Assembly (NCBI RefSeq): GCF_009931435.1
Contig: NZ_CP043414.1
Reading direction: 5' to 3' (one strand)
DNA: 64,000 nt
Source: Escherichia coli
GTDB lineage: Bacteria > Pseudomonadota > Gammaproteobacteria > Enterobacterales > Enterobacteriaceae
How positions within the stretch are numbered: the first letter of the stretch is position 1; every line of letters begins with the position of its first letter. This document shows positions 8,449-48,506 of this stretch, piece after piece. The notes under the pieces are model-generated. The model had not been told where the DNA came from. It saw only the letters and a list, made by a program, of their open reading frames with translations, and searched no databases. A program made the position numbers and the translations under genes.

Positions 8449-8467
8449 TAGACAGGAGACAGTCACA

Positions 8468-9574: not shown

Positions 9575-9638
9575 TGCTTCAGGGCCCCAGTAAAGGGGCT
9601 CTGCTATCAATTTGCCATTTCAATTACGCGAAAATTAT

Positions 9639-10619
9639 ATGAACGCAATAATATCGCCCGATTATTACTATGTTCTTACCGTTGCCGGTCAGTCTAATGC
9701 CATGGCGTATGGCGAAGGACTGCCATTACCGGACAGGGAAGATGCGCCTCATCCCAGGATTAAACAATTAGCGAGATTCGCGCATACGCATCCCGGAGGC
9801 CCCTCATGTCACTTTAACGACATTATTCCACTGACTCACTGCCCACACGATGTTCAGGATATGCAGGGTTATCACCATCCTCTGGCAACGAATCATCAAA
9901 CACAGTACGGCACCGTTGGCCAGGCACTGCATATTGCACGGAAATTACTGCCCTTTATTCCTGATAATGCAGGGGTTCTCATCGTTCCGTGTTGCCGTGG
10001 CGGATCGGCTTTTACCGCGGGCAGCGAAGGGACATATTCAGAACGGCACGGAGCCAGCCATGATGCTTGTCGTTGGGGAACGGATACTCCGCTATACCAG
10101 GATTTAGTCAGCAGAACGCGAGCCGCACTGGCAAAAAATCCGCAGAACAAATTCCTCGGCGTATGCTGGATGCAAGGCGAATTTGACCTAATGACCAGTG
10201 ACTACGCGTCACACCCTCAACACTTTAATCATATGGTTAAAGCCTTTCGTAGGGATCTAAAACAATACCATTCTCAGCTTAATAAAATTACTGACGCGCC
10301 GTGGTTTTGCGGCGATACCACCTGGTACTGGAAAGAAAATTTCCCTCATGCGTATGAAGCTATTTATGGCAATTATCAAAATAATGTTTTAGCCAATATT
10401 ATTTTCGTCGACTTCCAGCAACAAGGTGCAAGAGGACTGACGAACGCGCCTGATGAAGATCCAGACGATTTAAGCACGGGATATTTCGGTTCAGCGTACC
10501 GGTCAGCGGAGAACTGGACGACGTCACTGCGAAGCAGTCATTTCAGCTCAGCAGCCCGTCGGGGGATTATTTCTGACAGATTTGTAGAAGCAATTTTGCA
10601 GTTTTGGCGCGAAAGGTGA
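9639..10619 (+). CDS. nanS: 9-O-acetyl-N-acetylneuraminate esterase NanS
   Basis: 326-aa product from the ATG at 9639 (MNAIISPDYYYVLTVAGQSNAMAYGEG...), an SGNH-type esterase; completes the nanCMS operon. Confidence 0.88.
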   Translation: MNAIISPDYYYVLTVAGQSNAMAYGEGLPLPDREDAPHPRIKQLARFAHTHPGGPSCHFNDIIPLTHCPHDVQDMQGYHHPLATNHQTQYGTVGQALHIARKLLPFIPDNAGVLIVPCCRGGSAFTAGSEGTYSERHGASHDACRWGTDTPLYQDLVSRTRAALAKNPQNKFLGVCWMQGEFDLMTSDYASHPQHFNHMVKAFRRDLKQYHSQLNKITDAPWFCGDTTWYWKENFPHAYEAIYGNYQNNVLANIIFVDFQQQGARGLTNAPDEDPDDLSTGYFGSAYRSAENWTTSLRSSHFSSAARRGIISDRFVEAILQFWRER

Positions 10620-10689
10620 GCGTTCATTAATTTGATTTATTTGCATCCATCAACGCTTTTAACTGCTCCGGCGTGCGGCACTATAATGG

Positions 10690-20800: not shown

Positions 20801-21210
20801 GGGTAGATGATAATCGCTTTAACCCCGGCTTGTGACGCGCCCGCGCAGTGGTTGAGCAGCGGGAACATAAAACATTCTGTTTTACCGGAGCCGGTACCGG
20901 TAGCGACCAGTGTCGGCTGTGGCGCGTCGCTTCCCAGACGCTGAAATGCCCGGGCCTGATGCGCGTGCGGCGGGAACGGCAGCGTCAGATTAGGGAAAAA
21001 ATTCAGCGGTAAGTCACTTTTACGAAACGGCAACTGGGCGGAAAGGTATGGTCCTTTCAGCAGCGTTTCCGGCTGGGCCAGAAATTGCTCCAGCATTGAG
21101 ACATTATCGTTATTCTCACCGTTAAACAGCGGGCTGTTTAGCGGGAACGCCGCCCGTAAAAAGGCGGCAACGCTGTCGGCGACCTGCCGACTGACAACGG
21201 ACGGCAACAT
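14869..21210 (-). CDS. Giant 2113-aa fusion protein: N-terminal DEAH-box SF2 helicase, DUF1998-type zinc ribbon, and a C-terminal restriction-endonuclease-like (Vsr/DUF559-like) module (DrmA+DrmB-like or DruE-like)
   Basis: Helicase motifs GTGSGKTECFMFPLL (I), VVDELHTFDGAQG (II), VGTSATV (III), QRIGRAGRKDG (VI). Cys clusters CSHCNYSE...YCPKCG and ECSCNHDTHKDGCYRCVYAY are typical of DUF1998. C-terminal segment RPDYVLYP...VAIFLDGFAFH...D..KRQAIRDSGNFWVW resembles a PD-(D/E)xK Vsr-like nuclease. Start overlaps the methyltransferase stop. Confidence 0.7.
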   Translation of the reverse strand: MLPSVVSRQVADSVAAFLRAAFPLNSPLFNGENNDNVSMLEQFLAQPETLLKGPYLSAQLPFRKSDLPLNFFPNLTLPFPPHAHQARAFQRLGSDAPQPTLVATGTGSGKTECFMFPLLNHCAGASQAGVKAIIIYPMNALATDQASRFAKTIASDPQLHGKVTVGLFVGDSEIEPSKKMSAEKVITCKHTLRESPPDILLTNYKMLDYLLMRPGDQPLWRYNQPGSLRYLVVDELHTFDGAQGSDLACLVRRLKHHIGVDNQRFACVGTSATVGDELGQLLDYAKTIFDQPFTDDAVIREDRYTAAEYLQDYAIAYSQYPGQEVASALDPQSYATPVAYLNGQIPLWFPDSDLQLPDDLESDDGREKRIALGSLLRRHSVMHVLLHDLQGGILSERECLENLQVMLAESADHARRVLQSILALIAQARLEVPEMEHDRQKRLQAKKARPVLPFVQLRSQLWLREMRRLVASVAKTPRLVFADDVAVEDREHYLPVIHCRDCHATGWASLRHGQSVQLETDLDGIYRQFFEKGRSIVLAFPDNNEKAVSGAHQKLCPTCLKLNRQSSVQCGHCGHTELLQVLIPDMLKERKDELEFANECPYCNSKQGISILGSRAASLSAVMIHQLYGSQFNEHKKLITFSDSVQDAAHRASFFTARTWPLMIRGQIASVLGEKETLPLDAFAARVCQQTRERSPDDAHFAANFIAPNMQWLNDYQTLKNEGKLAENSDLPELVSLRLDWEVYSEFTLRARIGRTLEATGYAVAGVDKERFNPAITALHQQLCEELGDEMSGVSVEQVAHLALGVIWYQRQAGAVMHPAFESYRRDGTTFMMTQKERTSRYMPSIGPKTRKPAYASFEKINGFHRLIGAKSNPSWYQHWINRTLSNGNNLFISSVAETVLRRLFTALKIAGVVKDFDTKGREAWGLVPSALVVSRDVVQLNCSCCREVVRAPADQGWQWRNAPCLSLRCEGRYQEVDNMATWRWENMDIARVQGAEHTGLLSREDREATEKSFYRGNQPWNINLLSATPTLEMGIDVGDLSTVLLCSVPPAQANYLQRIGRAGRKDGNALNITVAEGNPHDQFFFEEPLEMMQGQVQAPGVFLNATAILERQLAAFCMDNWVKTGVPESAICKNVKQMLDELEFGRKSGFPYNLLRYIEQHHAEIAAQFTAIFPDLAAETRQQLLSYLQGAPGQRSLVQRIEEALKLLVEDRKSLRSRIDKLKRSIDKLENAPRDQNFDSDMRELTSERQALMALVNQINNKQTLNFLTDEGLLPNYAFPEAGITLRSVLWRRKEGGEAREYQNTTFEYERPASTALAELAPLNNFYAGGHKVEIEQIDLKVSEPENWRICSHCNYSENIDQTGDQHKYCPKCGTPGWADAGQKTTLLKLRQVYARASARDSQISDESDSREPAFFQRQLLVSFEKEDVSAAYAIEEGEVPFGFEFLSKVTLRDINFGKMADDANELMIAGEAKKRTGFKVCLGCGMVQRPRDHEPRHDLSCKYRTEPEKAKFEDYLYLYRQLESEALRILLPVSSYSNDRVVEASLGAAIQLGLKHYFKGNVDHLKGVVYREPENEGESWRQYLVIYDTVPGGTGSLKELMRTPDNLLKLLELAYQAIVECSCNHDTHKDGCYRCVYAYRDRGRMKYVSRDQARLLLAKILQARDSIRVIDSIKNISLEAMMGSELEKRFISCLQENKNLIVSRSYAHQGAGWIINTRSEPMMSWHLKAQVDLGAKEAVGIPCRPDYVLYPLMQSDAIKPVAIFLDGFAFHKNSVAEDVQKRQAIRDSGNFWVWTVTWADLKEPGLKHVQDVLGLGHNPDMKQPKFYNLFHDTNFAALEASFRERNSFALLLDYLAEPGGRTQLWQKMAAAHAWVWLDVKKSQDAGTKQKYAYEMQENAPDWRLAELLPDEPFVFGGLLDSCNSSQQFIELASVLPQQAIKPTTSVAQMRSWLRLHICFDDRYTQDDGYEAGLNGFWRLVNLLQFLPDMTFTSRKAVHLPQESVDVKVTATPEAVPETDESWAEIIEFGLLSAEEIALLQSHSLSAPTLGYELQNDEGEIIAEADLAWPSQKWALIIDNQEFIPLFTTRGWHVAFGPIDENTLQHLSGGDK

Positions 21211-24200
21211 CAGGCGCTCTCCTTATCTTGTGCAAAGAACGCCCAGGCCACTTTGTAGTCGTCTTCGCGATCCGGCTTGATAAACGGTGCCTGCCAGGTG
21301 ACGGTACGGCGCTCGCCTTCGTCGCTGCGGGTATAGTCATCAAAGGTGACGCTGACGGTACCGGTTTGCAAATGTTTGACATCATCCCAACCGATGGCTT
21401 GATCGGTGCAGTCACCGCCGGTCCACTCCGGGCTGTCGACGTTAAAGACAAAGCCGTTTTTCAGGTCAGCTTTACGCGCGGTGCGAGGCAAGCCAACGCC
21501 CACCAACCCTTTGCTTGGGGTAAAGATGATGCGGCCGTTTTGGTCGTACCAGGTGTCCGCTTCGTACTGACGCATCACCGGGAACTGTACACGGTAAATG
21601 GTAAGCAGCTCTTCGAGGGTTAACCCCAGCGCCTGTGCCACCAGAACGTCGATTTCCACCAGCGCCTGACGACGACTGTAGTCGGAGCGTAAGGCACAGT
21701 TACGCTGCCACTCTGGGGTCAGATTGGCGAAGAAATCTTGTGGGAGCTGCGGGAGATCGCGGCTCCAGCGTTGGGTATTGAAGTCTGGGGTGTAGCAGGA
21801 TTGCCAAAGGCCAGCATATACATCATTTACAGAATTTAATGATAATACTAAGCAGTATAATAATGCCTTTTGTCTCGGATTGAATAATACGTATGAGAAA
21901 CCATCAAGCATCTGATGTAAGTTTGCCTTGCCAGTAGATTTACAAATAAAATCAAAAGGTAAAGAAAAACACATACCTGAATGTTCGAGTAACTGATTCT
22001 GTGAGCTATAGCAGTAAGAACGTACTGCGTTCATGTGACTTATTTCTGGCGGATAAATAGCACTAATTAGTGTACGTTCCCCCGATTGAGCCAACATGGC
22101 TCTGATAGCTAAGCGATAATAATCTGTTACCTTCTTCGGTTCATCTTCAGCCAGTTCAGTCCATGTAACGCATGGAGTACGTTTGGCATACTCCTGTGCA
22201 TCACAGGCTGGAATATAGTTAGTGCGCGGCAAATAGTCGTCGGGCAGAGTTAGCAAGTCTAGGTTATCGTATGCTTTATTCGTGTCACAAACCGCTCTAG
22301 GCGTATTGTAGAAAGGATTGCCAACAAAAAAATGAGGGCCAGACAAAACCCATTGTGATGCTTCTTCCGGGAACTGTGTATGTCGCTCAATTGTACCATC
22401 GCTTTGCTGATTAGTTTCATGCCACATTTCTAGAGAATAATATTGCCCCTGCAAATCACCTAATCGCCTAGGTTGTTTCGCAAACTTTTCAAGTACTGTA
22501 ACTAATTGTGTAGCATGCAACGCAGGAAGACGGGCTTCCTGGGCAGGAGTTCCGACAACATCATAAAGACGCGCAAAAAGACCCAACTGTTTTAAATTTA
22601 TAGGCACGACTCGATCGAAATGTCCCTGGAAATTCCATTTAACTTTTACTTTGCCATCGATTTCAGTTTCTTCTTTTATCCCCGGGACAATGCCTTCCCC
22701 TTTATGTTCAAAACACGCGTCAATAGTTTGAGGAATAAATAAATTTGCTATATTTGAGAATGCCACTATCTGAGAATAGGGGCCATATACATTGATGCTA
22801 AATCTAGTGTGATTATCTACTTCAGCAAATATTTTAACTTCATTGGCAAATTGAAAATGCGCCCTCAACCTCGGGTACACTGCCGCACGCAACTGCCCAC
22901 CTTTCGGGTCATCATAAATCCCTTCCGGGTGCAGGAAGCCTGCCACGCCTTTCTCTGCCCCTAAGCGCCATGCCTGCGGCAGGAAGCATTTATACAAGTT
23001 GGTCTGCACCCCGCGCAGTACCGGGTAGTTTTGCTGCGCATTGAGGAAGTTTTGCATCCCTTCACAGCCTTCATACTCGCTGCGCCAGGCCGCTTCCAGC
23101 GCTGGGATCTGGTTAAAGGTATCAACACGCAACGTTGCCAGCTTCGATGCACTCAGCTTACGCAGCACAAATTCCGGCTCGTAATCACCCAGCACGCCCG
23201 CTTCCTGCCATTCCACTTTTAGCCACGGCGGGTTTCCGAGCATCAGGTCAAAACCGCCGCGCTCGGCAAACAAGTCGCAGAACTCCAGATCCCAGTGGAA
23301 GAAACGGTGCTGCTTTCTCAGGGCATCGACAATCGCCAGACGCGGCAAATGGCGGAACAGCACATCGGTTTTCAGACGACCAGCAACGGAAAACAGCGAA
23401 GACTCTTCTCGCAGCAGGCCTTCTTCGGCAAACAGATCGCCAGTGGTGTGATCCGCAACTTCAGTGACTTTTTCCGTGATTACAATCCCGTCGAGCAGGG
23501 TTTCAATCTCAAACAACCAGGTACCGCGATCCGGTAGCTCATCAGCTTTGTCGATCGGCCAGAACCACAGCGCGCACCAGTAGTCCATCACCCAACGCAG
23601 CTTCTGGTAGGCGCTGTTATCTTCAAGACGACCGCTAAAGGTTTCATCTTTACTGCTCAGCGAAGAACGTGTCTGCTCGCTGTTTTCTGCCGGCCACACC
23701 GGGTAGCTGTCGGCGGTTTTCAGACGTTCTGCTTTAAGTTGCTGGCGATAGGTGTTCCACAGTGCTTCCACCTTTTCGCTGATACGCTGCACATCAGCAA
23801 TCTCATGCCCGGCAAAGCTTTTAATAAACTCTTTGCGCCAGCTGTCCAGCGCTTTGAAGTCATCCGGATAACGCTGCTTAACAGTTTTATCGCTGTAATT
23901 AGCCATACCGCCGTCGGGCAGCAGGAAGTGGAAAATCTGCGTCTCTTCACGCGGCGTGTTCATCGCCAGTTCGACCGGCTCGCTGTTAAGCCAGCTCGGA
24001 TCTTTGACTTTTTTGTAGGTCAGTTCGCTCTTGTTGAACACCTGACGGCGCGCGCCCACCAGCGAGTTACCGCAGTGCAGCTGGTAACCAAACCACGGTA
24101 CAAAGGCATCGCCACTGATGGCGTTCAGCCACAGTGACACTTCCGCCAGCTCCACCGCCACCGGGTTTAAGTCCACGCCGAAAACGTTGTTGTCGGCAAT

Positions 24201-26144
24201 GTACATTTTCACCCGCTGTAACTCCTGGGTGTAACGATCCTGCGGAATACGTCGACCTTCCGCCTGCTGTTTGTGGAACAGATACGCTTCCGCCAGCTGG
24301 TTGATGGCTTCGTTAAGGAACGCCGCGCTGCCCATCGCCGGTTCGCACACGGTGAGGTTTAAGATGGCATCAGCTTTGGCGTGCGGATCGCTAATGGGAT
24401 CAATCTGCTCCTTAAACAACTCTTTCAGGGCATATTTAACCAGTGAGCGGGTCAGCACTTCCGGGGTGTAATAAGAGGCAGATTTCTCACGGTCGCGTCC
24501 GGCCATACGGTAGATAAAACTGCCTTTGCGGTGAATGCGCAGGCTGCCGTCTTTCTCGTAGACCTTCTCGTCTTCGTGGTATTTGCCAATCTCATCCTTA
24601 CTGACGAAGTAACCCGTCTCCAGCTCGTTAAACTCTTCTCCGGCTTTCTTCACCTCGTAGAGATCTTCGCTGGCGAAGAATCCGCGATAGGAGAGCAGTG
24701 CCTCATACACCGCACCCAACTGGTTGATACCCAACTGGCGATAAGAAATACGTCCGCGGCGGTTAAAGCGCTCTTTGCCCGGGCGGCTTAACGACATCGC
24801 CTGGATAATCTGTTGCAGGGTTTCGTTACGGAATACCACGCGGTTAAGAATGCGCGTGTTGTTGGCATCAAACAGATGACTTTCCAGACGCGGGACGCTG
24901 AACTGATGACTATGGATGGTGATCCGGTCGCCGCTCTCCAGGTCACTCTGCATTTTCACGCCGCCGTTGTAGCCTTCGCGCACCAGTTTAAACAGCATAT
25001 TCAGGCTGTCGTGGAAGTAGCGCCCGTTGCGATCTTCTTCGCTGGTCAGCGGGATCATCTCCAGATCGCGCAACGTTTCCAGGCTGTAACCTTGCAGATA
25101 GGTTTTGGCGGTCATCGGCGCATAACCCAGCTCCGGGCGCGCTTCAATGTAGAACAGGAACAGCAGGCGGTACATGTAACGCAGACATTCGCGGCTCAGT
25201 TCATCCGGGTCCACCGCACGGTTACCGGTATAGTTTGCCAGGCCACGGTCGATCAGGTAATGCATCGCTTCGTTGCCCAGCAGCTCAATGCTTTCGCGCA
25301 GGGCATATTTCAGATCTTCCGACACGCCAAACGCATGTTTGTGCGAATTGTCATCCAGCGAGTCAAGATAAGGTGCCCCACTGCCCGGCAGCAGAGAATC
25401 TTTATGTAGCAACACCGCCGTCGCTTTCAGCGTATCCGTTTCACGACGACTTAAAATCTCTTCAAAATCAAAACGCAGCAGACGGTTTTGCGCCCACTTA
25501 GTACGGTCCAGCAGCAATAGCTGACGGTTACCGAGCAATAGCACAAAACGCGGAGGTTCATTTTGGGTGAAGACCGCCGTAGAGAGCAGATCTTGCCAGC
25601 TGCGATATTCACCGTTGGCTTTTTTGCGCAGGCTGTCGCGCTTATGTTTGTCGGTATCCGCCGGGAATTGCGCGGTCAGTAAAGAGAGCGCCAGCGGATC
25701 CAGCGTTCCCTCTTCCTGATCGTGTGCTTCGACAATCCACAGCCACGGGCTACCGTCAGTGCTGTTGTAACGCGCCAGTACCGGCAGCGGTGTATCGTCA
25801 TCCAGCATTTGGATCTGCGGCGTAATTTCGTAACCCAGCGCCTTTAACAATGGCTGCCAGCGATTACGTTGATCGGCCAGACGTTGCGGGATCTGACGCT
25901 GTTTTTCGTGCTCGGCAAGTTTGCGGAAAAACTCAGTCGCCAGACTGTTAAACTGGTTCCACGGAGCGCGGTATCCCGGCTCTACGTCTTTGCCCTGTTC
26001 ACGAGCGGCACGCTCCGCTTCACGCGCTGCATTTTCCTGGGCTATCCAGGGTTCCAGCACATCGCGGATATCACTGGTGAAAACCTCACCCAAATAGTGG
26101 TTAGAGTAAAATTCGTTTTCGTTATTAATACCGACCAGCGCCAT
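21210..26144 (-). CDS. Very large (1644 aa) gamma-class N6-adenine DNA methyltransferase (DrmMI/PglX-like)
   Basis: AdoMet-binding motif I (...LNLTVCEPAMGSAAFLNEAINQ) followed later by the catalytic motif IV LMLGNPPWLKVEW (NPPW), which is the gamma-class order. It has long N- and C-terminal extensions and sits 2 bp downstream of the SNF2 gene. Confidence 0.75.
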   Translation of the reverse strand: MALVGINNENEFYSNHYLGEVFTSDIRDVLEPWIAQENAAREAERAAREQGKDVEPGYRAPWNQFNSLATEFFRKLAEHEKQRQIPQRLADQRNRWQPLLKALGYEITPQIQMLDDDTPLPVLARYNSTDGSPWLWIVEAHDQEEGTLDPLALSLLTAQFPADTDKHKRDSLRKKANGEYRSWQDLLSTAVFTQNEPPRFVLLLGNRQLLLLDRTKWAQNRLLRFDFEEILSRRETDTLKATAVLLHKDSLLPGSGAPYLDSLDDNSHKHAFGVSEDLKYALRESIELLGNEAMHYLIDRGLANYTGNRAVDPDELSRECLRYMYRLLFLFYIEARPELGYAPMTAKTYLQGYSLETLRDLEMIPLTSEEDRNGRYFHDSLNMLFKLVREGYNGGVKMQSDLESGDRITIHSHQFSVPRLESHLFDANNTRILNRVVFRNETLQQIIQAMSLSRPGKERFNRRGRISYRQLGINQLGAVYEALLSYRGFFASEDLYEVKKAGEEFNELETGYFVSKDEIGKYHEDEKVYEKDGSLRIHRKGSFIYRMAGRDREKSASYYTPEVLTRSLVKYALKELFKEQIDPISDPHAKADAILNLTVCEPAMGSAAFLNEAINQLAEAYLFHKQQAEGRRIPQDRYTQELQRVKMYIADNNVFGVDLNPVAVELAEVSLWLNAISGDAFVPWFGYQLHCGNSLVGARRQVFNKSELTYKKVKDPSWLNSEPVELAMNTPREETQIFHFLLPDGGMANYSDKTVKQRYPDDFKALDSWRKEFIKSFAGHEIADVQRISEKVEALWNTYRQQLKAERLKTADSYPVWPAENSEQTRSSLSSKDETFSGRLEDNSAYQKLRWVMDYWCALWFWPIDKADELPDRGTWLFEIETLLDGIVITEKVTEVADHTTGDLFAEEGLLREESSLFSVAGRLKTDVLFRHLPRLAIVDALRKQHRFFHWDLEFCDLFAERGGFDLMLGNPPWLKVEWQEAGVLGDYEPEFVLRKLSASKLATLRVDTFNQIPALEAAWRSEYEGCEGMQNFLNAQQNYPVLRGVQTNLYKCFLPQAWRLGAEKGVAGFLHPEGIYDDPKGGQLRAAVYPRLRAHFQFANEVKIFAEVDNHTRFSINVYGPYSQIVAFSNIANLFIPQTIDACFEHKGEGIVPGIKEETEIDGKVKVKWNFQGHFDRVVPINLKQLGLFARLYDVVGTPAQEARLPALHATQLVTVLEKFAKQPRRLGDLQGQYYSLEMWHETNQQSDGTIERHTQFPEEASQWVLSGPHFFVGNPFYNTPRAVCDTNKAYDNLDLLTLPDDYLPRTNYIPACDAQEYAKRTPCVTWTELAEDEPKKVTDYYRLAIRAMLAQSGERTLISAIYPPEISHMNAVRSYCYSSQNQLLEHSGMCFSLPFDFICKSTGKANLHQMLDGFSYVLFNPRQKALLYCLVLSLNSVNDVYAGLWQSCYTPDFNTQRWSRDLPQLPQDFFANLTPEWQRNCALRSDYSRRQALVEIDVLVAQALGLTLEELLTIYRVQFPVMRQYEADTWYDQNGRIIFTPSKGLVGVGLPRTARKADLKNGFVFNVDSPEWTGGDCTDQAIGWDDVKHLQTGTVSVTFDDYTRSDEGERRTVTWQAPFIKPDREDDYKVAWAFFAQDKESA

Positions 26145-26146
26145 GA

Positions 26147-29005
26147 TTAACCCTCCGCTCCGGTGATAACAGCAATTACCTGAATGTAGGGTTCTTTTTC
26201 AGTCGTCATGGTGTCCTCAATCCATTCAATATAGCTGTCAAAATTGTGTTCGATTTCGCGTTGTCTCTGCTCTTTACGGCTCTGCTTAACTGACAATTGC
26301 TGTTTGTTATCGGCAAAATCCAGCTCAAGTTGGCTCAACTGCCGCCCACGCAAAACGTCCAGCTTTTGCAGATGCTCATTCAGTTGCTGGTTAATGTGCG
26401 TTTCAAACGCATTCCGATCATGGATGAATACCTCCCGGGCATGAGCAATAGCCGCTTCCAGTAAATCCTGCTGGCGCTGGTGATTACGATCTTTACCGCC
26501 GCTGTTAGTCAGCTTGTTACTCAACTGCGGATGACGTTGTAAAAACTCAGCAAATGGCTGACTGCCGATTAGCGATTCACGGTTAAAGCTCACCACTATC
26601 CACGGGTTCACCATCGGATGTGATTTACGGTTCGGGAATAACCCGGAAAGAATGAAGTGATCTTCATCGGGTTCAAGCAGGTATGGCAGACGGATAACCG
26701 GTGCCTGATGACGACCAAAAGCCGAAGAGATTTTATCGTCCAGCCACTGCACTACCGGGTTGATTTGCCAGAGATACTGCACATCGGGCCAGGCATGTTG
26801 CTCACCGCGAGCGCGTGCAATCGCGTCGGTGATGACGGTTTTATCCTGACTTAAATAGAGCTGCCAGTTCTCCGGGGCGATTTCAGGCGGTAGCTGGTTG
26901 AAGCGGCGGCGTAACTCCTCCGGTGCCACCAGCGACAAGGTATTATCAGGCAAGGTTTCATACTGGATAGTTTGACCACTGGCTTTCAGGTAACCCAATG
27001 CTCTTTCGCAGTACGCCTGTTCGCTGGCAAACAAGCTGGTGTCTGTTTCGGTAACCATTGAGGCATCGCTGGAAACCGCACTGCATATTTCGCCAAACAG
27101 ATCATGTTCGGCGCTTTCCGAGACGTTGCTGTTCAGCAGTTGATCAAACAGGCTGGCACCATCATCCTGCATCATGAACTCTGCAACCTGCTCTTCTTCC
27201 TCTTCCTGGGTAAATTTGCCGGTAAACTCCGAACTGTCCCCAATGTTCTTCTGCGCCTGTTCGTCTTTGTTGATCAACACTTCCAGTACGCGCATATCGC
27301 CATTGATCTGCGGTTCGCTGGCCTCGGTAAGCAGATAGCGGATTTGAGGCTGATGTTTTTGCCCATAGCGGTCAATACGCCCGTTACGTTGCTGGAATAC
27401 CATCAACGACCACGGAATATCAAAGTGAATCATTTTGTGGCTAAGGTGATGCAGGTTGATCCCTTCAGATGCCACATCCGAACAAACCAGAAGACGCAAC
27501 GGCGACTGCGTTTTACCAAAGGCTTCTACGGTTTCCATCAACACCGTATCGCCCTGATCGCCGCGCAGCGTGGCGATCTGATCATCTTTCAATTTCAGAT
27601 CCGCTCGCAGTTGCTGTTCGAGGAACTCCAGCGTTTTAATGCTTTCGGTGAAGATCACCAGGCGATCTTCCGTGTTATTGGCTTTCCAGGCGAGGTCTTT
27701 TCGGATGGTGTCGAGCAGCAACTGGTATTTGCTAAACTGGCTGGCATCAATGTTATTCAGCGCCAACAGCAATGACTCCAGTTCGTTGATCTGGCTCTGG
27801 CTATTATGATCTTTACGGCTCTCAAGACGCTTCAGACGATTAGCCACTACGCTGGCACACGCCATCGGGCTGGAAAATAGCGCTTTTTCGAGGGTTATCT
27901 TGAACAGACGACCTTTGTTAGACTGGGCCTGTTCATCGTCATCATCACGGAACTGACTCTCAACCAGGCGACGGTATGCTTCTTCTTCGGCACCGGATGC
28001 CAGGCGAGTCAGTTTGACAATATTGCGCTCGGGGAACTCGCCAGACATCTGATCTTTCACGTCTTTTTTGAAGCGACGGACAACCAGATTTTTATCGGCA
28101 AAGTCGGCGTATTCATACTCTTTCGGGTTGGCGATCGCCGTCGGGTCAAGCATGTTCATCAGGCTGGCAAAACTTTCAGCTTTACCATCATGCGGCGTTG
28201 CTGAAAGCATAATCAGCGTATCGCTGCGCCCGGCGAGCAGTTTTGCCAGTTTACTGCGTAACGAACTGGTTCCACGTTCTGCGACGTTATGGGCCTCATC
28301 AATGACAATAATATCCCACCAGGCATTTTCCAGATGGTGACGATATTCAATATCTTGTTTCAGCGTATCGATGGAGATAATGGTCTTGTCAAAATAGTGG
28401 AACGGGTTGTGGTTGGTAGGGATGCGGTTACGCACTTTTTGTAAACCAGCAGAATCCAGGCGGGTCAATGGGATCGCAAAACGGCTCCAGAACTCCTTCT
28501 GGAATTGTGTCAGCATCGATTTAACCGCCAGAACCAGAATACGTTTTCCGCGCCCACGACGGATCAGTTCCGAAACCAGAATACCCGCTTCCAGCGTTTT
28601 ACCCAGACCGACAGCGTCGGCAATGAGTATCCGCTGACGCGGTTGTGCCAGCGCCATCCGCGTAGGATCGAGCTGAAACGGCATGGAATCCATCGCCGCC
28701 AGATGTCCAAAATGGACTTTACTGTCTGTCGGTACGCGTTGGCGTAACTGACTTTCAATATACAACTGTGCCGCCTGATAATTGGCGGATTCATCTTCCA
28801 CCAAATGCGTTTTTGCGGGATCAAGGATCTCTACTTTTTGTTCCAGTTTGGTCAGAAATAACCCTTCTTTACCGCGCACCAGCTCTGAAATACCATCGCA
28901 GGTCAGCAAATACCCACCATCACCACTGTCATCCGCCCGGCGAATACGCCATTCGGCATCACGAATAACCACCCGCATACCAGGTGCATAATTTTGCTTA
29001 TTCAT
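26147..29005 (-). CDS. SNF2/RAD54-family helicase (DrmD-like), first gene of the DISARM-like operon
   Basis: ADAVGLGKTLEAG (motif I), IVIDEAHNV (DEAH), LMLSATPHDG (motif III), C-terminal QQRNGRIDRYGQK (motif VI). Preceded by a 223-bp intergenic region containing inverted repeats. Confidence 0.75.
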   Translation of the reverse strand: MNKQNYAPGMRVVIRDAEWRIRRADDSGDGGYLLTCDGISELVRGKEGLFLTKLEQKVEILDPAKTHLVEDESANYQAAQLYIESQLRQRVPTDSKVHFGHLAAMDSMPFQLDPTRMALAQPRQRILIADAVGLGKTLEAGILVSELIRRGRGKRILVLAVKSMLTQFQKEFWSRFAIPLTRLDSAGLQKVRNRIPTNHNPFHYFDKTIISIDTLKQDIEYRHHLENAWWDIIVIDEAHNVAERGTSSLRSKLAKLLAGRSDTLIMLSATPHDGKAESFASLMNMLDPTAIANPKEYEYADFADKNLVVRRFKKDVKDQMSGEFPERNIVKLTRLASGAEEEAYRRLVESQFRDDDDEQAQSNKGRLFKITLEKALFSSPMACASVVANRLKRLESRKDHNSQSQINELESLLLALNNIDASQFSKYQLLLDTIRKDLAWKANNTEDRLVIFTESIKTLEFLEQQLRADLKLKDDQIATLRGDQGDTVLMETVEAFGKTQSPLRLLVCSDVASEGINLHHLSHKMIHFDIPWSLMVFQQRNGRIDRYGQKHQPQIRYLLTEASEPQINGDMRVLEVLINKDEQAQKNIGDSSEFTGKFTQEEEEEQVAEFMMQDDGASLFDQLLNSNVSESAEHDLFGEICSAVSSDASMVTETDTSLFASEQAYCERALGYLKASGQTIQYETLPDNTLSLVAPEELRRRFNQLPPEIAPENWQLYLSQDKTVITDAIARARGEQHAWPDVQYLWQINPVVQWLDDKISSAFGRHQAPVIRLPYLLEPDEDHFILSGLFPNRKSHPMVNPWIVVSFNRESLIGSQPFAEFLQRHPQLSNKLTNSGGKDRNHQRQQDLLEAAIAHAREVFIHDRNAFETHINQQLNEHLQKLDVLRGRQLSQLELDFADNKQQLSVKQSRKEQRQREIEHNFDSYIEWIEDTMTTEKEPYIQVIAVITGAEG

Positions 29006-42587: not shown

Positions 42588-42796
42588 ATTCCGAAACTCC
42601 GTGAAAGTTAAGACTTTCACGGAAGATAAATAAAATTCTCCTGATTTGTGACTCAAATTATAAAAGTCGTTTATGGCATAACTTGTCTGTTTTTTTGGTG
42701 TAATAGGTATAAAGGCATATGCTATGGTTAGCCTTATATTTAAAACTTTCCTCATACGGGTGAAGGTTAAAGCTTGGTAGATAGGTTACAGTCACA

Positions 42797-43406
42797 ATGA
42801 ATAAAGCAATAACGGTGCTTGCTATAATGATGGCTTCATTTTCCGTAAATGCGTATGTATTACCGGAAACGCCTGTGCCATTTAAAAGTGGTACCGGAGC
42901 AATTGATAACAACACTGTCTACATTGGTTTAGGTAGCGCAGGTACGGCATGGTACAAGCTGGAGAAACAGACCAAAGATAAAAAAATGGACAGCGTTAGC
43001 TGCATTTCCTGGTGGACCGAGAGATCAAGCAACTTCTGCATTTATTGATGGCAATCTGTATGTGTTTGACGGCATTGGCAAAAACAGTGAGGGCTTGACT
43101 CAGGTATTTAATGACGTTCACAAATACAACCTCAAAACCAATAGCTGGGTTAAATTGATGTCGCACGCGCCGATGGGCATGGCGGGTCATGTGACATTTG
43201 TACACAACGGCAAGGCTTATGTTACTGGCGGTGTTAACCAGAATATCTTCAATGGCTATTTTGAAGATCTTAACGAAGCTGGAAAAGATTCAGCGTACCG
43301 GTCACCGGAGAACTGGATGACGGTACTGCGAAGCAGTCATTTCAGTCGGGGGATGATTGTAGACAAATTTGTTGACGCTATTTTGCGGTTTTGGCGTGAA
43401 GGGTGA
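42797..43406 (+). pseudogene. Degenerate nanM'-nanS' fusion remnant: diverged second copy of the nanM 5' part joined to the nanS 3' end, with a frameshift
   Basis: MNKAITVLAIMMASFSVNAYVLPETPVPFKSGTGAIDNN... parallels the NanM N-terminus and frameshifts after ...QTKDKK. The second frame continues NanM-like (...GKNSEGLTQVFNDVHKYN...EDLNEAGKD) and then jumps directly into the NanS C-terminus (SAYRSPENWMTVLRSSHFS...FWREG). The following roughly 55 bp are near-identical to 10620..10677 after the intact nanS. Confidence 0.8.
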
Positions 43407-43413
43407 GCGTTCA

Positions 43414-44064
43414 TTAATTTGATTTATTTGCATCCATCAACGCTTTTAACTGCTCCGGCGAAAACGGTGGTTTGCGTCGGTGCAACATCGCATGGCAATT
43501 AGGGCACACAGGAAGCAAATCATTAACTGGATCCAGCTGGTAATTCTCTTTAATGGCTGAAAGCGGCACCAGGTGATGCACATGGATAAAGCCTTCAGCG
43601 ATATCACCATAGATCTTCACCAGATCAACGCCGCATACGTTGCACTGGCATCCATGATGTTCGACCGCTTTATCTCGGGCCTTTTTATCGCGTTCATAGC
43701 GGTTTACTGTCACCTTTATCGCCGCACCTTCAACGTATGTCTCCTGCGACGGCAACTCATCCGGGAACAGAACGTCGGCTATGGGAGCCGCAGCGGCTTT
43801 ATCCTGATGAATATGAAATCCCTGCTCTATGAGTAGTTTGACGCATTTAGATTTTATTCCGCCGGTGAAATCCGCAGGGGTAAATTGCGTCCCCGTCATC
43901 AATGTCGCTGCGATGCCAGCAATCGCCTTCGAGGGGTAACGTCGGCCATGATATTCAATCTCATACAACCGCGCAGGCTGGAACTGATGAGTTTCTCCCG
44001 CATCCCATAAATGGATAGCTTCGATGATATACCGCCGCGGAAGATGATCAGGGAGTTTATTCAT
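43414..44064 (-). CDS. HNH endonuclease family protein (McrA-like C-terminus)
   Basis: C-terminal CQCNVCGVDLVKIYGDIAEGFIHVHHLVPLSAIKENYQLDPVNDLLPVCPNCHAMLH is an HNH/zinc motif; the N-terminal domain is of unknown function. Confidence 0.6.
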   Translation of the reverse strand: MNKLPDHLPRRYIIEAIHLWDAGETHQFQPARLYEIEYHGRRYPSKAIAGIAATLMTGTQFTPADFTGGIKSKCVKLLIEQGFHIHQDKAAAAPIADVLFPDELPSQETYVEGAAIKVTVNRYERDKKARDKAVEHHGCQCNVCGVDLVKIYGDIAEGFIHVHHLVPLSAIKENYQLDPVNDLLPVCPNCHAMLHRRKPPFSPEQLKALMDANKSN

Positions 44065-44143
44065 GGAGAATGTCCTTATACGTTCTCAGAACAGGCAGCA
44101 AAAAAACAAATGAGATCAAGGTAATATATCTTCACTTGCAGGC

Positions 44144-45073
44144 TTGAACAGCAGAAAATTTGCGAGCATGATCGCAATTATTTCACTGCCAGGGATATCA
44201 ATGGCTTCCAGTAAATCGCTACAGCAGGCAATTGCCAATATAAAAATCTGGCACAAGGGTGAACAGCGCGCGCCGCATAAGCCATTGTTATTGCTATACG
44301 TATTAGCGGGATACCTGAATGGACATCCGCGCCTTTTCGATTATGGCTCGGAAATCTACGAACCTCTGCACAGTTTACTGGAACGTTTTGGGCCACAGCG
44401 TTCACAGTACCGACCTGATATGCCGTTCTGGCGATTACAAGGCGACGGATTCTGGCAATTACACAATGCCGAACTTTGCTCAACAGCAGGGAGTAGCCGA
44501 CAACCGCCAGTGAAGGAACTGACCGAACACCGCGTTGCAGGCGGTTTCGATGAACAGCACTATGCCCTGGTAATCGGCAATAAAAAACTCATCAATACCC
44601 TGGCGCAACAGATACTCGAAGCGCACTTCACCGAGAGCATTCAGGAAGAAATTGCTGACGAGCTGGGTTTTGATCTCCAGCAAATCCGTAAACAGCGCGA
44701 CCCGTTATTTCGCAAACTTGTATTGCGCGCATATAACTACCAGTGCGCGATATGTGGCTTTAATATGCGCCACGATGACACCACCGTCGCACTGGAAGCA
44801 GCGCATATAAAATGGAAACAGCACGGCGGTCCTTGTGAAATTCCTAATGGCCTGGCGCTTTGTGCAATACACCATAAAGCCTTTGATAAAGGATCGATTG
44901 GCCTGGATGAAAATATGCGGGTACTGGTCTCGGATGCGGTAAACGGCGGAGGGATCGTTGAGAAACTATTCTGGGATTTTGACGGGAAAACTATTGCGTT
45001 ACCACAGGTGCGTAAAAATTACCCTTTTGAGGGGTTTGTGGAGTGGCATCGAAAAGAGGTTTTTAGGGGGTGA
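44144..45073 (+). CDS. HNH-motif nuclease-like protein, divergent from the preceding HNH gene
   Basis: C-terminal CAICGFNMRHDDTTVALEAAHIKWKQHGGPCEIPNGLALCAIHHKAFDKG (HNH-like). Shares a 79-bp divergent intergenic region with the 43414..44064 gene. The true start may be an internal Met. Confidence 0.55.
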   Translation: MNSRKFASMIAIISLPGISMASSKSLQQAIANIKIWHKGEQRAPHKPLLLLYVLAGYLNGHPRLFDYGSEIYEPLHSLLERFGPQRSQYRPDMPFWRLQGDGFWQLHNAELCSTAGSSRQPPVKELTEHRVAGGFDEQHYALVIGNKKLINTLAQQILEAHFTESIQEEIADELGFDLQQIRKQRDPLFRKLVLRAYNYQCAICGFNMRHDDTTVALEAAHIKWKQHGGPCEIPNGLALCAIHHKAFDKGSIGLDENMRVLVSDAVNGGGIVEKLFWDFDGKTIALPQVRKNYPFEGFVEWHRKEVFRG

Positions 45074-45695
45074 GGTTGATAACTATCGCAGTATGTTCAA
45101 TATTGCTGACATAATCAGTGCAGGATCTTGCCGCTAGTTTACAACTCGCCTTCGATAGCGGCGCAAAACGAGTTCTGTTGCCGATATCCTCGGCTATGGA
45201 TATTCCAACAGTTCCGGCAGAGTTGTTTACCAAGTTTCAGGTAAGTTTTTACTCAGAACCGGTTGATGCGGTTTATAAGGCGCTGGATGTGAATTAACAC
45301 ATTCCTCAGCTTATTTACAAAAGGATTATTCCCATTTGATATAATATCAGTGCCAATTTACTTTTTTCAATGGAATATATCTCGGCTAAATAACAATAAA
45401 ACTTATCGCTAATGGATTAAATAAACAATTTTCTAATTTATTTCACCACCTTTGATATAGAAATTGATGGTGTTGTCGCTGCCATTGCTTATGGTGATGA
45501 TAAAATCCACGTTTCTGGATCGGTGCGTAGAAAATCATCACTTCCTTGATATTTTGATGCGATATGATCATACCGTTCCGTAGTACCAATTTCAACTTCA
45601 GGCTAAACCCCAACATTAAAAAAATTAGAGTTATTCACTGATTATATTATCAATAATATAATCAGTGAATAACATGGACTATATAATAAATTGCT

Positions 45696-47744
45696 CTAAT
45701 CATTTCCCTTACGAATATATGGGCCAAAAGCCCAAGAATCATAATAAGGGTGATGGACTAATTTTTCATTAAATCGAACACTATAAGTTAATTTTTTTAT
45801 ATTTTTACGTACAGCATTAATACTGGGCAAAGAGGAAAGATAATCTATAAACTTATCGATAGTGATTTTCCCTTCGCAACACTCAAACCCATCAATGATA
45901 TTTTTCGCCATTTTTCCATTTTCATTTGTTTGATATATCACTCCAGGTATTCGTTGAAAAAAACTAGATAATGCATATTTGTCCGCTACATATGTATCAT
46001 CCACATGATATTTCCCACCGAGCATAGTTGTAGTAACAATAAGCTTATACACACCTTTGGGTTGCCATGTTGATGGTAGTTCGAATTCTTTAATGATCAC
46101 ATCAAGATGATTAAGATAATGTTCAGAAATTCGATTTATTTGTTGAAAATAAGAACGCATAAATTTATTATTATGATCATGTATTAATGAGCTATCTCCA
46201 ACGATGTTACACACTTGCTGATAGTACTTACCATAATATATTGGTTGACCATTTGATTTTAGTTCTGTAAAAATCAAACAATCATCCAGGAGAATCACGC
46301 AATCGCACTGATAATTAGCATGAGCATCAATTGGAGAAGCTTTAATCCCCGCATCACGAACTTGTTTTATAAATTGTTGCTCATGAAATCGCCCTTTACT
46401 TGCTTGAGAAATTTTTTTGGAACCAAATAATGACATTAGAGAGCGAGTCACTGAGCTATTTGCTATTAATGCAGGCATTAAGCATAAACCGTCCATACAG
46501 GGAATAAATGGGCAATCATTAAGATCATGTGATTTTGAATTGAAGGTAAAATAATCTATCAGTTTTTTTGCTGCATCTGCTGCAATCCCCTTACGTTGAA
46601 AGAATGATAACCAACTCTCACGGCTTTTTATGACCAGCCAGCGATCCAACTGTAGGGGTATAGGTTTTGTCGATGAAAATCTTTTGCTCATTTCTTCTTT
46701 AGATAACTCGACTAAACATTGATAAGCGTGCACCCAATTAAATAATGATATATTCCCATATTCTTCATGAAGGTCATCAGGAGACATATTTTCCAACTCG
46801 CTTAAATGAAATGAGCTAAAAACGCCATCAGAATTTAAGTAAGATGGCATATGATCCTTTACCCAACTATTTAGATGAAAATGTTTGTTACTAAATTCAT
46901 GAACTTCGCTATATAGATGTGACGCTCTCATCATTAGTCTATTTCTTGCAATCTCATAATCTCGGTATAAACAAAAACTATCAACCTCAAGAGAGTAAAT
47001 GTTATTATCCAATTTTGTAAATACTGCACTACTTAGTCTGAAAAAGTCTCTTACTCTGCTTAATGAGTCAAAAACATTCCACTCATTAAGGTACCCTCCC
47101 ATTGAAAGCAAGGTTTGTTTATTCACACAAGAAGTTAGTTTCAATGGCCCATGAGTCCGTAAATAAGAAAATATTCTTCCGGTGTAATTGGCTACCTCAT
47201 CAAATGCCCTATCGATAACTCGAAAATATTCGATATCAGGTTCAGCATGAATATTAATATTTTCAGAAACGATAAATAATGGAAAAATCCTCTTCATTTT
47301 TTTAGGATCATTGACCACAACCAAGGATGATAATGATGATAAAAACATCTCACAAAACATGATGAGATTAAGTATTAATGCATGTGATTTTTTTGTATTT
47401 TTACGCCAAATACCAGCACATTTTGCAGCCCCAAAGAAAGAATTATTTATATCATGCATAATTTTACATTGACTCTCGAACTCAGAGATTAGTTCAATGT
47501 TATCAGGAAATGAGTTTACTAGCTCATTAATACATTTTTTGAATGTATTGTTATACTCAACTTCAGTCTGAACTGAAAATCTATTATAATAGATGGAAGA
47601 TATTCTCAGCACATCCAAGGCGATATCTATACTAATATCATCTCTTTTTATGTACTCACAAAAAAAAGAACAAAACTGTTTCGGGTCGTTAGCAAGATTA
47701 CTAATTCTAGTGGTATCATAAACTTTTTCCATTTTTCCATACAT
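45696..47744 (-). CDS. Hypothetical 682-aa protein, very low GC, adjacent to leuX
   Basis: Long uninterrupted ORF in strongly AT-rich DNA with no recognisable motif by eye. Its position next to the tRNA and its composition suggest horizontal acquisition. Confidence 0.5.
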   Translation of the reverse strand: MYGKMEKVYDTTRISNLANDPKQFCSFFCEYIKRDDISIDIALDVLRISSIYYNRFSVQTEVEYNNTFKKCINELVNSFPDNIELISEFESQCKIMHDINNSFFGAAKCAGIWRKNTKKSHALILNLIMFCEMFLSSLSSLVVVNDPKKMKRIFPLFIVSENINIHAEPDIEYFRVIDRAFDEVANYTGRIFSYLRTHGPLKLTSCVNKQTLLSMGGYLNEWNVFDSLSRVRDFFRLSSAVFTKLDNNIYSLEVDSFCLYRDYEIARNRLMMRASHLYSEVHEFSNKHFHLNSWVKDHMPSYLNSDGVFSSFHLSELENMSPDDLHEEYGNISLFNWVHAYQCLVELSKEEMSKRFSSTKPIPLQLDRWLVIKSRESWLSFFQRKGIAADAAKKLIDYFTFNSKSHDLNDCPFIPCMDGLCLMPALIANSSVTRSLMSLFGSKKISQASKGRFHEQQFIKQVRDAGIKASPIDAHANYQCDCVILLDDCLIFTELKSNGQPIYYGKYYQQVCNIVGDSSLIHDHNNKFMRSYFQQINRISEHYLNHLDVIIKEFELPSTWQPKGVYKLIVTTTMLGGKYHVDDTYVADKYALSSFFQRIPGVIYQTNENGKMAKNIIDGFECCEGKITIDKFIDYLSSLPSINAVRKNIKKLTYSVRFNEKLVHHPYYDSWAFGPYIRKGND

Positions 47745-48421: not shown

Positions 48422-48506
48422 TGGTGCCGAAGGCCGGACTCGAACCGGCACGTATTTCTACGGTTGATTTTGAATCAACTGCGTCTACCGATTTCGCCAC
48501 TTCGGC
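48422..48506 (-). tRNA. leuX: tRNA-Leu (anticodon CAA), leuX
   Basis: The minus-strand sequence GCCGAAGTGGCGAAATCGGTAGACGCAGTTGATTCAAAATCAACCGTAGAAATACGTGCCGGTTCGAGTCCGGCCTTCGGCACCA forms the acceptor stem, carries a CAA anticodon in a TTCAAAA loop, has a long variable arm and ends in CCA. Confidence 0.95.

Follow-up and report, generated by a model that had tools for sequence, protein, structure and literature searches.

Two divergent HNH nuclease genes, one of the EcoWI type, in the nanS-leuX variable region of Escherichia coli

In a 64,000-nucleotide stretch of Escherichia coli DNA (contig NZ_CP043414.1, hereafter the window), two HNH-nuclease genes lie in divergent orientation in the nanS-leuX defence hotspot. 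We think it probable that each encodes a modification-dependent HNH restriction endonuclease that consists of a single chain and acts autonomously. The plus-strand product carries a sulfur-binding domain (SBD) and is of a type already known from EcoWI, while the minus-strand product combines a ScoMcrA-type head domain with an HNH nuclease, a widespread architecture. In these respects the finding is largely ordinary.

RESULTS

Genomic setting of the gene pair

The minus-strand gene (head-HNH, 43414..44064) encodes a protein of 216 aa and the plus-strand gene (SBD-HNH, 44201..45073) one of 290 aa; both ORFs are present at these coordinates, intact and divergent. RefSeq lists the head-HNH product as 'HNH endonuclease' (WP_001403934.1), an annotation taken from a 99.4%-identical locus. 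Among 5426 complete E. coli genomes, near-identical DNA with at least 80% coverage was found in 1238 for head-HNH and in 1706 for SBD-HNH, so neither feature is a chance ORF.

The pair sits in the nanS-leuX variable region, between nanS and the leuX tRNA, directly after the right-hand copy of a nanM/nanS direct repeat (42742..43460) that bounds an upstream defence island, whose systems include Druantia III and Zorya II. This copy was delimited by a repeat search (families D1–D4) and by junction alignment: segments 8413–8950 and 10490–10673 on the left match 42742–43280 and 43289–43460 on the right. The 3′-terminal 47 nt of head-HNH belong to the right-hand copy, and the left-hand copy retains the final ∼16 codons of that gene. 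An earlier note on this DNA had placed the two genes just outside a repeat-bounded island, and the mapped repeats bear this out. No second leuX att copy was detected within the 64-kb window. Apart from the pair, the interval 42600–45700 contains solely nanM/nanS remnants, a 25-codon ORF and a pseudogene fragment.

The plus-strand gene encodes an EcoWI-like protein

The 290-aa protein matches NF045808, the NCBIfam model for phosphorothioate (PT)-dependent SBD-HNH restriction endonucleases of the EcoWI/SprMcrA type, with 435.9 bits (cut-off 180 bits) and over profile positions 2–284 of 284, in line with its RefSeq product name. Its C-terminal nuclease domain (44744..44908, plus strand; residues 201–255 when counted along a 309-aa ORF with an upstream start) matches PF13391 HNH_2 with 39.3 bits against a cut-off of 21 (E = 5.9e-10). 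All HNH motifs are present, namely CAICG (182), AAH (200–202), PNG (215–217) and IHH (223–225), and the catalytic set is H-N-H rather than the weak H-N-R reported for SprMcrA (PMC7461809). The earlier note had left this protein, the better supported of the two, uncharacterised.

The SBD spans residues ∼4–140 (44210..44620, plus strand) and was recognized by phmmer through its similarity to the SBD of ScoMcrA (5ZMO, E = 1.5e-6; residues 95–230 of 5ZMM). In ScoMcrA, the sulfur pocket is formed by H116, R117 (K in most homologues), Y164 and P165 (PMC6224610). The equivalents in the 290-aa protein are H26, K27, M74 and P75, within the motifs PHKP at 25 and MPFW at 74. M74 stands in the place of Y164, a residue that a mere 7 of 23 homologues retain; the Y164M substitution gives stronger binding (PMC6224610).

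EcoWI, from E. coli W, is an SBD-HNH, PT-dependent type IIM/IV restriction endonuclease described by Lutz et al. 2020 (PMC7461809). It cuts GpsAAC/GpsTTC at N7/N6, cleaves PT-DNA in vitro on its own and in vivo leaves dnd+ plasmids unable to transform (PMC7461809). A search of published papers and supplements for an EcoWI accession or sequence found none, and the E. coli W genome was used instead. The protein encoded there at the same locus, WP_000168572.1, is identical to the 290-aa protein at 280 of 290 positions (96.6%), the ten substitutions being T108N, H110Y, R111H, I125T, G156R, L173N, H208Q, K255R, F276Y and G278V. Presumably WP_000168572.1 is EcoWI, judging from the enzyme name, the locus and the mass (33.31 kDa computed, 33.4 kDa reported for EcoWI; PMC7461809). 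Through this protein, the likeness to EcoWI extends to an SBD joined with HNH_2, the length of 290 aa and the location by nanM/nanS.

Given this level of identity, the 290-aa protein is most likely a phosphorothioate-dependent SBD-HNH restriction endonuclease and an allele of EcoWI. Judging from its studied homologue, it would act as a homodimer whose SBD docks on Rp-phosphorothioate links of incoming DNA (GpsAAC/GpsTTC in the case of EcoWI). The HNH_2 domain would then use Mg2+ to cut the two strands at a distance of a few bases, and plasmids and phages from dnd+ hosts would be destroyed.

Start codon and upstream region of SBD-HNH

The plus-strand ORF can be read from TTG 44144 (309 aa) or from ATG 44201 (290 aa), and the latter is most likely the true start. 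RefSeq gives the gene a length of 873 bp, the NF045808 match sets in at residue 25 when the 309-aa ORF is used, and in homologues from Citrobacter, Klebsiella and an ICE the start is never more than three codons away from the aligned ATG 44201. A TTG start would moreover place a conserved non-coding palindrome inside the ORF. These four observations argue for ATG 44201 and make 44144–44200 an unlikely extension of the gene. It follows that the intergenic region measures 136 bp (44065..44200), in keeping with an alignment of the E. coli, Citrobacter and K. aerogenes intergenic sequences; the divergent transcription described in the earlier note thus stands, but its 79-bp spacing does not.

The palindrome (TTGCGAGCATGATCGCAA, 18 bp, 44160..44177) precedes the start codon of SBD-HNH by 24 nt. 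Across five lineages it is invariant save for one central C/G change, and two of these lineages have no adjacent head-HNH gene. A conserved CTTGA is found upstream of it, with a −35-like TTGAAC at 44144–44149, and the palindrome also scored as a terminator-like hairpin. We regard it as a candidate operator or 5′-UTR hairpin. On the other side of the region, an SD-like AAGGA precedes the head-HNH ATG by 7 nt. A promoter scan of the intergenic region returned no strong sigma-70 site.

The minus-strand gene encodes a head-HNH protein

The 216-aa protein has its domains strung one after another, like the 290-aa protein, and consists of a ScoMcrA_N head (residues 1–90; 43795..44064, minus strand), a disordered linker of ∼30 residues and an McrA-type zinc-finger HNH domain (residues ∼121–200; 43465..43704, minus strand). 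The latter matches PF01844 with 23.4 bits (cut-off 21.4) and combines a CxxC…CxxC zinc finger with the H-N-H catalytic set. C141, C144, H163, H164, C187, N189, C190, H191 and H195 do not vary among 26 homologues, which reach down to 46% identity, and the HNH, zinc-binding cysteines included, is thus predicted to be catalytically competent. Both proteins have an HNH domain above the Pfam gathering score, in line with the HNH-type motifs that the earlier note had seen in them. Neither of the outcomes that it had named as counting against its proposal, matches to non-nuclease families and degenerate catalytic residues, was encountered in either protein.

The name ScoMcrA_N (PF26345) comes from precomputed annotations of homologues, in which it accompanies PF01844. 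The Pfam models that we searched, a set without a head-domain model, yielded no Pfam, SRA or EVE match in the N-terminal region. The search of the N-termini that the earlier note had suggested has thus identified ScoMcrA_N in one protein and the SBD in the other, and SRA in neither. As for the 216-aa protein, the intact McrA-type HNH on which that note had built its type IV reading is confirmed; the modification-reading domain that such a reading calls for (SRA, EVE/PUA, NEco, wH or SBD) was not found, the N-terminus being ScoMcrA_N instead. The head is the sole candidate module for recognition of DNA or of a modification. The 2018 structure paper on ScoMcrA describes the function of its head domain as unknown (PMC6224610).

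The company that the head keeps in other proteins is informative. The domain falls into 2956 clusters at 50% identity, in 107 of which it is fused to another domain: HNH (42), HNH_2 (21), EVE (12), NOV_C (11) and, more rarely, AAA_5/McrB-like (5), DUF3427 (4), SRA (2), MrcB_N (2) and AspBHI_N (1). Modification-dependent restriction enzymes draw on these same domains. The HNH cassette of the 216-aa protein (residues ∼95–215) is likewise found in other genomes, at 50–59% identity, fused to DUF3427, EVE, DpnI_C or Mrr_N. Modular modification-dependent families such as SRA-HNH TagI, EVE-HNH VcaM4I and wH-HNH/PUA-wH-HNH (PMC6212794, PMC7897488, PMC11037411) resemble it in these fusions and in their plan of one chain with a sensor and an HNH but no cognate methyltransferase; unlike ScoMcrA_N, however, their sensors have known ligands (5mC/5hmC, 6mA). 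The 216-aa protein, too, appears to be a stand-alone nuclease. No methyltransferase or immunity gene is present in 42600–45700, none recurs beside head-HNH across 15 distinct contexts, and the adjacent genes vary. On architecture only, we infer that the protein is a type IV-like enzyme, whose head would direct it to some non-host DNA feature. E. coli carries Dam and Dcm methylation, which the protein would have to tolerate because its host is E. coli.

Could the 216-aa protein be functionally equivalent to E. coli McrA, that is, a type IV enzyme dependent on 5-methylcytosine or 5-hydroxymethylcytosine? JGI labels many homologues '5-methylcytosine-specific restriction protein A', and there are weak matches to the PADLOC mREase_IV models. 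These source annotations were transferred by similarity, however, and the likeness is limited to the nuclease domain. The 5mC-reading N-terminus of EcoKMcrA (the McrA of K-12, PDB 6GHC) is absent, with ScoMcrA_N in its place, and EcoKMcrA is encoded by prophage e14, whereas the 216-aa gene lies in nanS-leuX. We therefore consider such an equivalence unlikely. EcoBLMcrX was tried as the identity of the protein and rejected; it corresponds to ECD_02034, a member of the BceYI/NhoI family at a different locus.

It is also conceivable that the gene has no part in defence. It might be a selfish HNH gene or one in decay, or might encode a nuclease for housekeeping or regulation and merely happen to lie in a variable region. 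A literature search found no experimental work on the head-HNH family or the head domain, and the HNH score only just exceeds the Pfam threshold. Moreover, head-HNH is deleted in K-12, whose small protein YthB is a fused remnant of the gene and all that is left of it, and in E. coli W; we know of no phenotype resulting from its absence in either strain. On the other hand, the gene in the window is full-length, intact copies are found in the 1238 genomes noted above, and the catalytic and zinc residues have stayed invariant in homologues as distant as 46% identity. Neighbours in other genomes are overwhelmingly defence or mobile genes (type I R-M, GmrSD_N, NACHT, PLD-helicase, DarTG, AbiE, a P4-like satellite hotspot), and the partners of the head are those of restriction enzymes. 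These data make a role outside defence highly improbable.

One pair or two autonomous genes

The earlier note had called the two proteins unrelated. In fact both are ββα-Me (HNH) nucleases, and their N-termini match adjacent domains of a single protein. ScoMcrA of Streptomyces coelicolor is a single chain of 561 residues with the order head-SBD-SRA-HNH (PDB 5ZMM; PMC6224610). The head of the 216-aa protein corresponds to its residues 29–93 and the SBD of the 290-aa protein to residues 95–230, and the HNH of the former is of the same PF01844 type. Here, by contrast, head and SBD are split between two proteins that have a nuclease domain each (PF01844 and PF13391, respectively), and neither protein has an SRA match; the four domains of the ScoMcrA family are thus not united in one polypeptide.

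This correspondence raises the possibility of a 'split ScoMcrA', in which head-HNH and SBD-HNH cooperate on phosphorothioated DNA, for instance within a hetero-oligomer or by nicking one after the other, or in which the head recognizes another feature found alongside PT. Besides the consecutive placement of the two domains in ScoMcrA, there is a PADLOC model, PDLC03662, to which both proteins align, at profile positions next to each other. E. coli, Citrobacter and K. aerogenes share the divergent pair as a conserved unit, set in three distinct genomic surroundings, and an ICE carries a diverged version of both genes (51% and 58% identity to those described here), 4 kb apart. The linkage of the pair exceeds what autonomy alone predicts. 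The linked cases are all from Enterobacteriaceae, however, and may represent one ancestral cassette.

Several observations speak against cooperation. EcoWI is fully active alone, both in vitro and in vivo (PMC7461809), and E. coli W keeps SBD-HNH with head-HNH reduced to a 105-bp remnant. The converse is seen in strain 204446, where head-HNH is kept and SBD-HNH is reduced to a 150-bp remnant. Among E. coli-type loci from gut metagenomes, a truncated SBD-HNH lies beside 31 of 72 intact head-HNH genes; the metagenome scan, with 80 loci nearly all from E. coli, Citrobacter or Klebsiella, informs on decay, not diversity. Co-intact pairs show no excess, with both genes near-complete in 325 of the 5426 E. 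coli genomes versus 389 expected under independence, in a count that ignores phylogeny. No SBD-HNH gene was found within ∼8 kb of head-HNH in 11 of the 15 distinct contexts, the two being linked in the other 4, and the upstream palindrome accompanies SBD-HNH regardless of head-HNH. Rather than being kept or lost together, then, either gene persists alone, and often outlives the decay of the other. We doubt, for these reasons, that the two proteins cooperate, and regard their genes as two autonomous units, often but not obligatorily combined into a cassette in Enterobacteriaceae, rather than as a two-component machine.

Other neighbours of the two genes were recorded as well. A Mrr_N-HNH gene follows SBD-HNH in Klebsiella and Citrobacter. 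In C. freundii, head-HNH lies directly beside a dnd-related cluster, which is a further point in favour of cooperation on PT-DNA; it comprises dnd_rel_methyl (691 bits), DndA-like, dnd_assoc_4 and DndD-like genes, and the 675-aa protein that follows head-HNH is a dnd-related methyltransferase. Among the 108 loci searched, such dnd-like genes occur in C. freundii only. A 682-aa ORF near the pair in the window (45696–47744) was compared with the 675-aa protein and rejected as its homologue (E = 0.32). A scan of viral contigs with the head profile retrieved three redundant E. coli-like loci.

Overall, PT-related genes are the commonest class of neighbours of head-HNH (5 of 15 contexts). It can thus be imagined that the ScoMcrA_N head is a reader tied to phosphorothioate biology, with head-HNH as a second PT-linked class of nuclease that complements or backs up SBD-HNH. 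The suggestion, to which we assign a small probability, stems from the head-SBD fusion in ScoMcrA, the SBD-HNH neighbours in E. coli, Citrobacter and Klebsiella, the ICE pair and the C. freundii cluster.

DISCUSSION

The core of the earlier reading, additional defence genes with modified DNA as their target, is supported by our analysis, and SBD-HNH is its better-supported half. As two probably autonomous enzymes, the products of the pair would add two further layers to a region already dense in defence genes, among them a type IIG/DISARM-like methylase module, Druantia III and Zorya II. Head-HNH is an architecture met very often, and roughly one in four complete E. coli genomes has the gene in intact form. 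Its repeated placement by PT-reading and PT-writing genes provides a concrete, testable hypothesis about its target. The SBD-HNH layer would be directed against sulfur-modified DNA from dnd+ donors and would thereby limit gene flow from such strains.

A divergent pair of HNH genes

The earlier note described a divergent pair of HNH nuclease genes here, and this is borne out: 43414-45073 of this E. coli chromosome contains two ORFs on opposite strands, with both HNH domains above the Pfam thresholds. The minus-strand gene (43414-44064, PF01844) encodes a 216-aa protein, head-HNH. The plus-strand ORF, as first read, starts at a TTG and encodes 309 aa (44144-45073) with an HNH_2 domain (PF13391); we call it SBD-HNH, for its sulfur-binding domain (SBD). 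A 3.1-kb region with both genes is found in other complete E. coli genomes at 98-99% identity, and RefSeq names the products there 'HNH endonuclease' (216 aa) and 'phosphorothioated DNA-binding restriction endonuclease' (plus-strand gene).

The SBD-HNH start codon is almost certainly the ATG at 44201, giving 290 aa, because the RefSeq gene is 873 bp long, the match to the NCBIfam profile NF045808 begins at residue 25 of the 309-aa ORF, homologues in Citrobacter, K. aerogenes and an integrative conjugative element (ICE) start three or fewer codons from this ATG, and a conserved non-coding palindrome occupies 44160-44177. This shortens the gene and widens the intergenic region from the 79 bp first noted to 136 bp. 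The palindrome, TTGCGAGCATGATCGCAA (18 bp), lies 24 nt 5' of the start codon. In five lineages in which the flanking intergenic sequence has diverged, one central base varies and the rest is invariant. A conserved CTTGA, resembling a -35 element, lies upstream (44144-44149). The palindrome may act as an operator for the SBD-HNH gene or form a hairpin in its 5'-UTR.

SBD-HNH and EcoWI

SBD-HNH scores 435.9 bits on NF045808 (PT-DNA_restrict), for which the cut-off is 180. Over its first ~140 residues it aligns with the SBD of ScoMcrA (5ZMO, E 1.5e-6; 5ZMM residues 95-230), a head-SBD-SRA-HNH protein of Streptomyces coelicolor, and its HNH_2 motifs are complete. The sulfur pocket of ScoMcrA, H116, R117, Y164 and P165, corresponds to H26, K27, M74 and P75. 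Most homologues carry K instead of R117, only a minority keep Y164, and Y164M makes binding even stronger (PMC6224610).

WP_000168572.1 of E. coli W (290 aa) is 96.6% identical (280/290) to the SBD-HNH of the window, and its gene occupies the same locus, adjoining nanM and a nanS remnant. Its computed mass is 33.31 kDa, compared to 33.4 kDa published for EcoWI, the phosphorothioate (PT)-dependent restriction enzyme of that strain (PMC7461809). As we found no accession for EcoWI in the papers on the enzyme, we infer from name, locus and mass that WP_000168572.1 is EcoWI. EcoWI is a dimer that, in Mg2+, cleaves GpsAAC/GpsTTC at N7/N6, and it completely blocks transformation by dnd+ plasmids (PMC7461809).

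Head-HNH and its domain partners

Residues 24-87 of head-HNH align with the N-terminal 'head' of ScoMcrA (residues 29-93; whole-sequence E 3.5e-5), and residues 123-198 with the HNH domain of E. coli McrA (6GHC, E 6e-4); precomputed Pfam annotation assigns the head to PF26345 (ScoMcrA_N). The ScoMcrA structure paper describes the head as small and flexibly attached and gives it no function (PMC6224610), and our literature search found no later work on the domain. Across 26 homologues (identity down to 46%), zinc residues C141, C144, C187 and C190 and catalytic residues H163/H164, N189 and H191/H195 are invariant, as are Y43, P44, K46, A47, G50, A52, P63, F66, G69, C74 and L78 in the head. The earlier proposal of a defence role holds in substance: judged by sequence, the plus-strand gene represents an allele of an enzyme already characterised, and the 216-aa protein belongs to a recognised architecture with a predicted function.

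A profile search with the head domain (E 0.001 or better) yielded 2956 clusters at 50% identity, in proteins of 93-1567 residues with the domain N-terminal or internal. When 107 of these proteins were scanned against Pfam, the partners were HNH (42), HNH_2 (21), EVE (12), NOV_C (11), McrB-like AAA_5 (5), DUF3427 (4), nSTAND3 (4), SRA (2), MrcB_N (2) and AspBHI_N (1). In 59 other genomes, the HNH cassette of head-HNH (residues ~95-215, 50-59% identity) follows different N-terminal regions, which include DUF3427, EVE, DpnI_C and Mrr_N. Such partner swapping by head and cassette is the mix-and-match design by which modification-dependent restriction enzymes are built, and because of this pattern the head would be the targeting module of head-HNH, a reading that falls short of proof.

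PT-related genes are the commonest neighbour class of head-HNH, in 5 of 15 distinct neighbourhoods (SBD links plus C. freundii). A PT-linked role for the head is conceivable but unlikely, given so few neighbourhoods and the general tendency of defence genes to cluster. The C. freundii homologue, 55% identical to that of the window, sits inside a P4-like satellite hotspot (L093-L095, 8001-16651), directly upstream of a dnd-related cluster. This cluster encodes a 'DNA phosphorothioation-associated putative methyltransferase' (dnd_rel_methyl; TIGR04096, 691 bits, cut-off 150), other PT-associated products (a DndA-like desulfurase, a dnd_assoc_4 protein and a DndD-like ATPase), Sp-CxC and an SNF2 helicase.

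Genomic setting

The tRNA-Leu(CAA) gene leuX (48422-48506) is 3.3 kb away from the pair; in K-12 the corresponding region holds nanCMS...yjhR. Upstream of the pair is a ~32-kb island bounded by nanM/nanS direct repeats (left copies 8413-8950 and 10490-10673; right copies 42742-43280 and 43289-43460). The right repeat overlaps the 3' end of the head-HNH gene by 47 nt, and the left repeat keeps the last ~16 codons of that gene (10627-10673), which places the island junction at ~10674. The left nanM-nanS copy is intact and the right one deleted, with 86-96% identity between them (8413-10673 versus 42742-43460). The island contains Druantia III, Zorya II and a minus-strand four-gene block (12758-29005) with DISARM- or Druantia-like parts, matched by no single PADLOC system: a GajB/UvrD-like helicase (704 aa), a second DruE-like DEAD/MZB helicase (2113 aa) whose C-terminus weakly matches ZorE, an Eco57I/DrmMI-like type IIG methylase-nuclease (1644 aa) and a DrmD-like SNF2 protein (952 aa).

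Between the pair and leuX lies a minus-strand ORF of 682 aa (45696-47744), a RefSeq 'hypothetical protein' with no match in Pfam, NCBIfam or PADLOC. A plus-strand fragment of 59 codons (45118-45297), which RefSeq labels 'peptidase' or a frameshifted pseudogene, is similar to the C-terminal part of a Lon-type protease domain (Lon_C, E 0.28) and may be left over from a BrxL-like gene. The K-12 small protein YthB (MNKLPAHLSRQNCKIAS...) opens with the start codon of head-HNH and its first ~8 codons, which run on into a short ORF that lies antisense to the 3' end of nanS (window 43337-43414 and 44036-44064; K-12 locus L082, 4820-4918). The fusion follows deletion of the K-12 equivalent of window 43410-44035, and YthB is therefore a remnant of the head-HNH gene.

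In K. aerogenes, Raoultella, Citrobacter portucalensis and Enterobacter (L089/L090 6260-7821; L020, L021, L011), a winged-helix Mrr_N-HNH gene lies 3' of SBD-HNH on the same strand, its nuclease cassette ~55% identical to that of head-HNH, with a type I R-M system after it; K. aerogenes thereby has three different sensor-HNH genes clustered together. The ICE (L084-L088, L105-L107; TraI_2, TraG_N, TraU, ArdC), beside ahr/idnK at the leuX site, carries diverged paralogues of both genes with AbiE or DarTG.

One system or two

Head-HNH and SBD-HNH might be linked as one system: head and SBD are consecutive domains in ScoMcrA, and a single PADLOC type IV model (PDLC03662) matches both proteins at adjacent positions. 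The same divergent adjacent pair recurs in Citrobacter (head-HNH 69%, SBD-HNH 81% identical), near a type II R-M system and tnaA, and in K. aerogenes (65%, 79%), beside the Mrr_N-HNH gene and type I R-M system; the ICE copies, 58% and 51% identical to those of the window, are 4 kb apart. However, EcoWI is active by itself (PMC7461809), and either gene can decay beside the other. Head-HNH is reduced to a 105-bp remnant in E. coli W, SBD-HNH is a 150-bp remnant beside intact head-HNH in strain 204446, and 31 of the 72 intact E. coli-type head-HNH genes on gut-metagenome contigs lie opposite a truncated SBD-HNH. Of 5426 complete genomes, 1238 have a near-complete head-HNH and 1706 a near-complete SBD-HNH; 325 have both, versus 389 expected if independent, a count that ignores phylogeny. 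Beyond these lineages, in 11 of the 15 neighbourhoods (K. pneumoniae, Atlantibacter, Escherichia sp., Pseudescherichia, Aeoliella, an Elusimicrobia MAG, Shewanella, C. freundii, Pantoea and two metagenomic contexts), head-HNH occurs without any SBD gene within ~8 kb, and the palindrome stays with SBD-HNH whether or not head-HNH adjoins it. We conclude that the pair is probably a cassette of enterobacterial ancestry whose two enzymes work autonomously; nothing at the locus falls outside known kinds of system.
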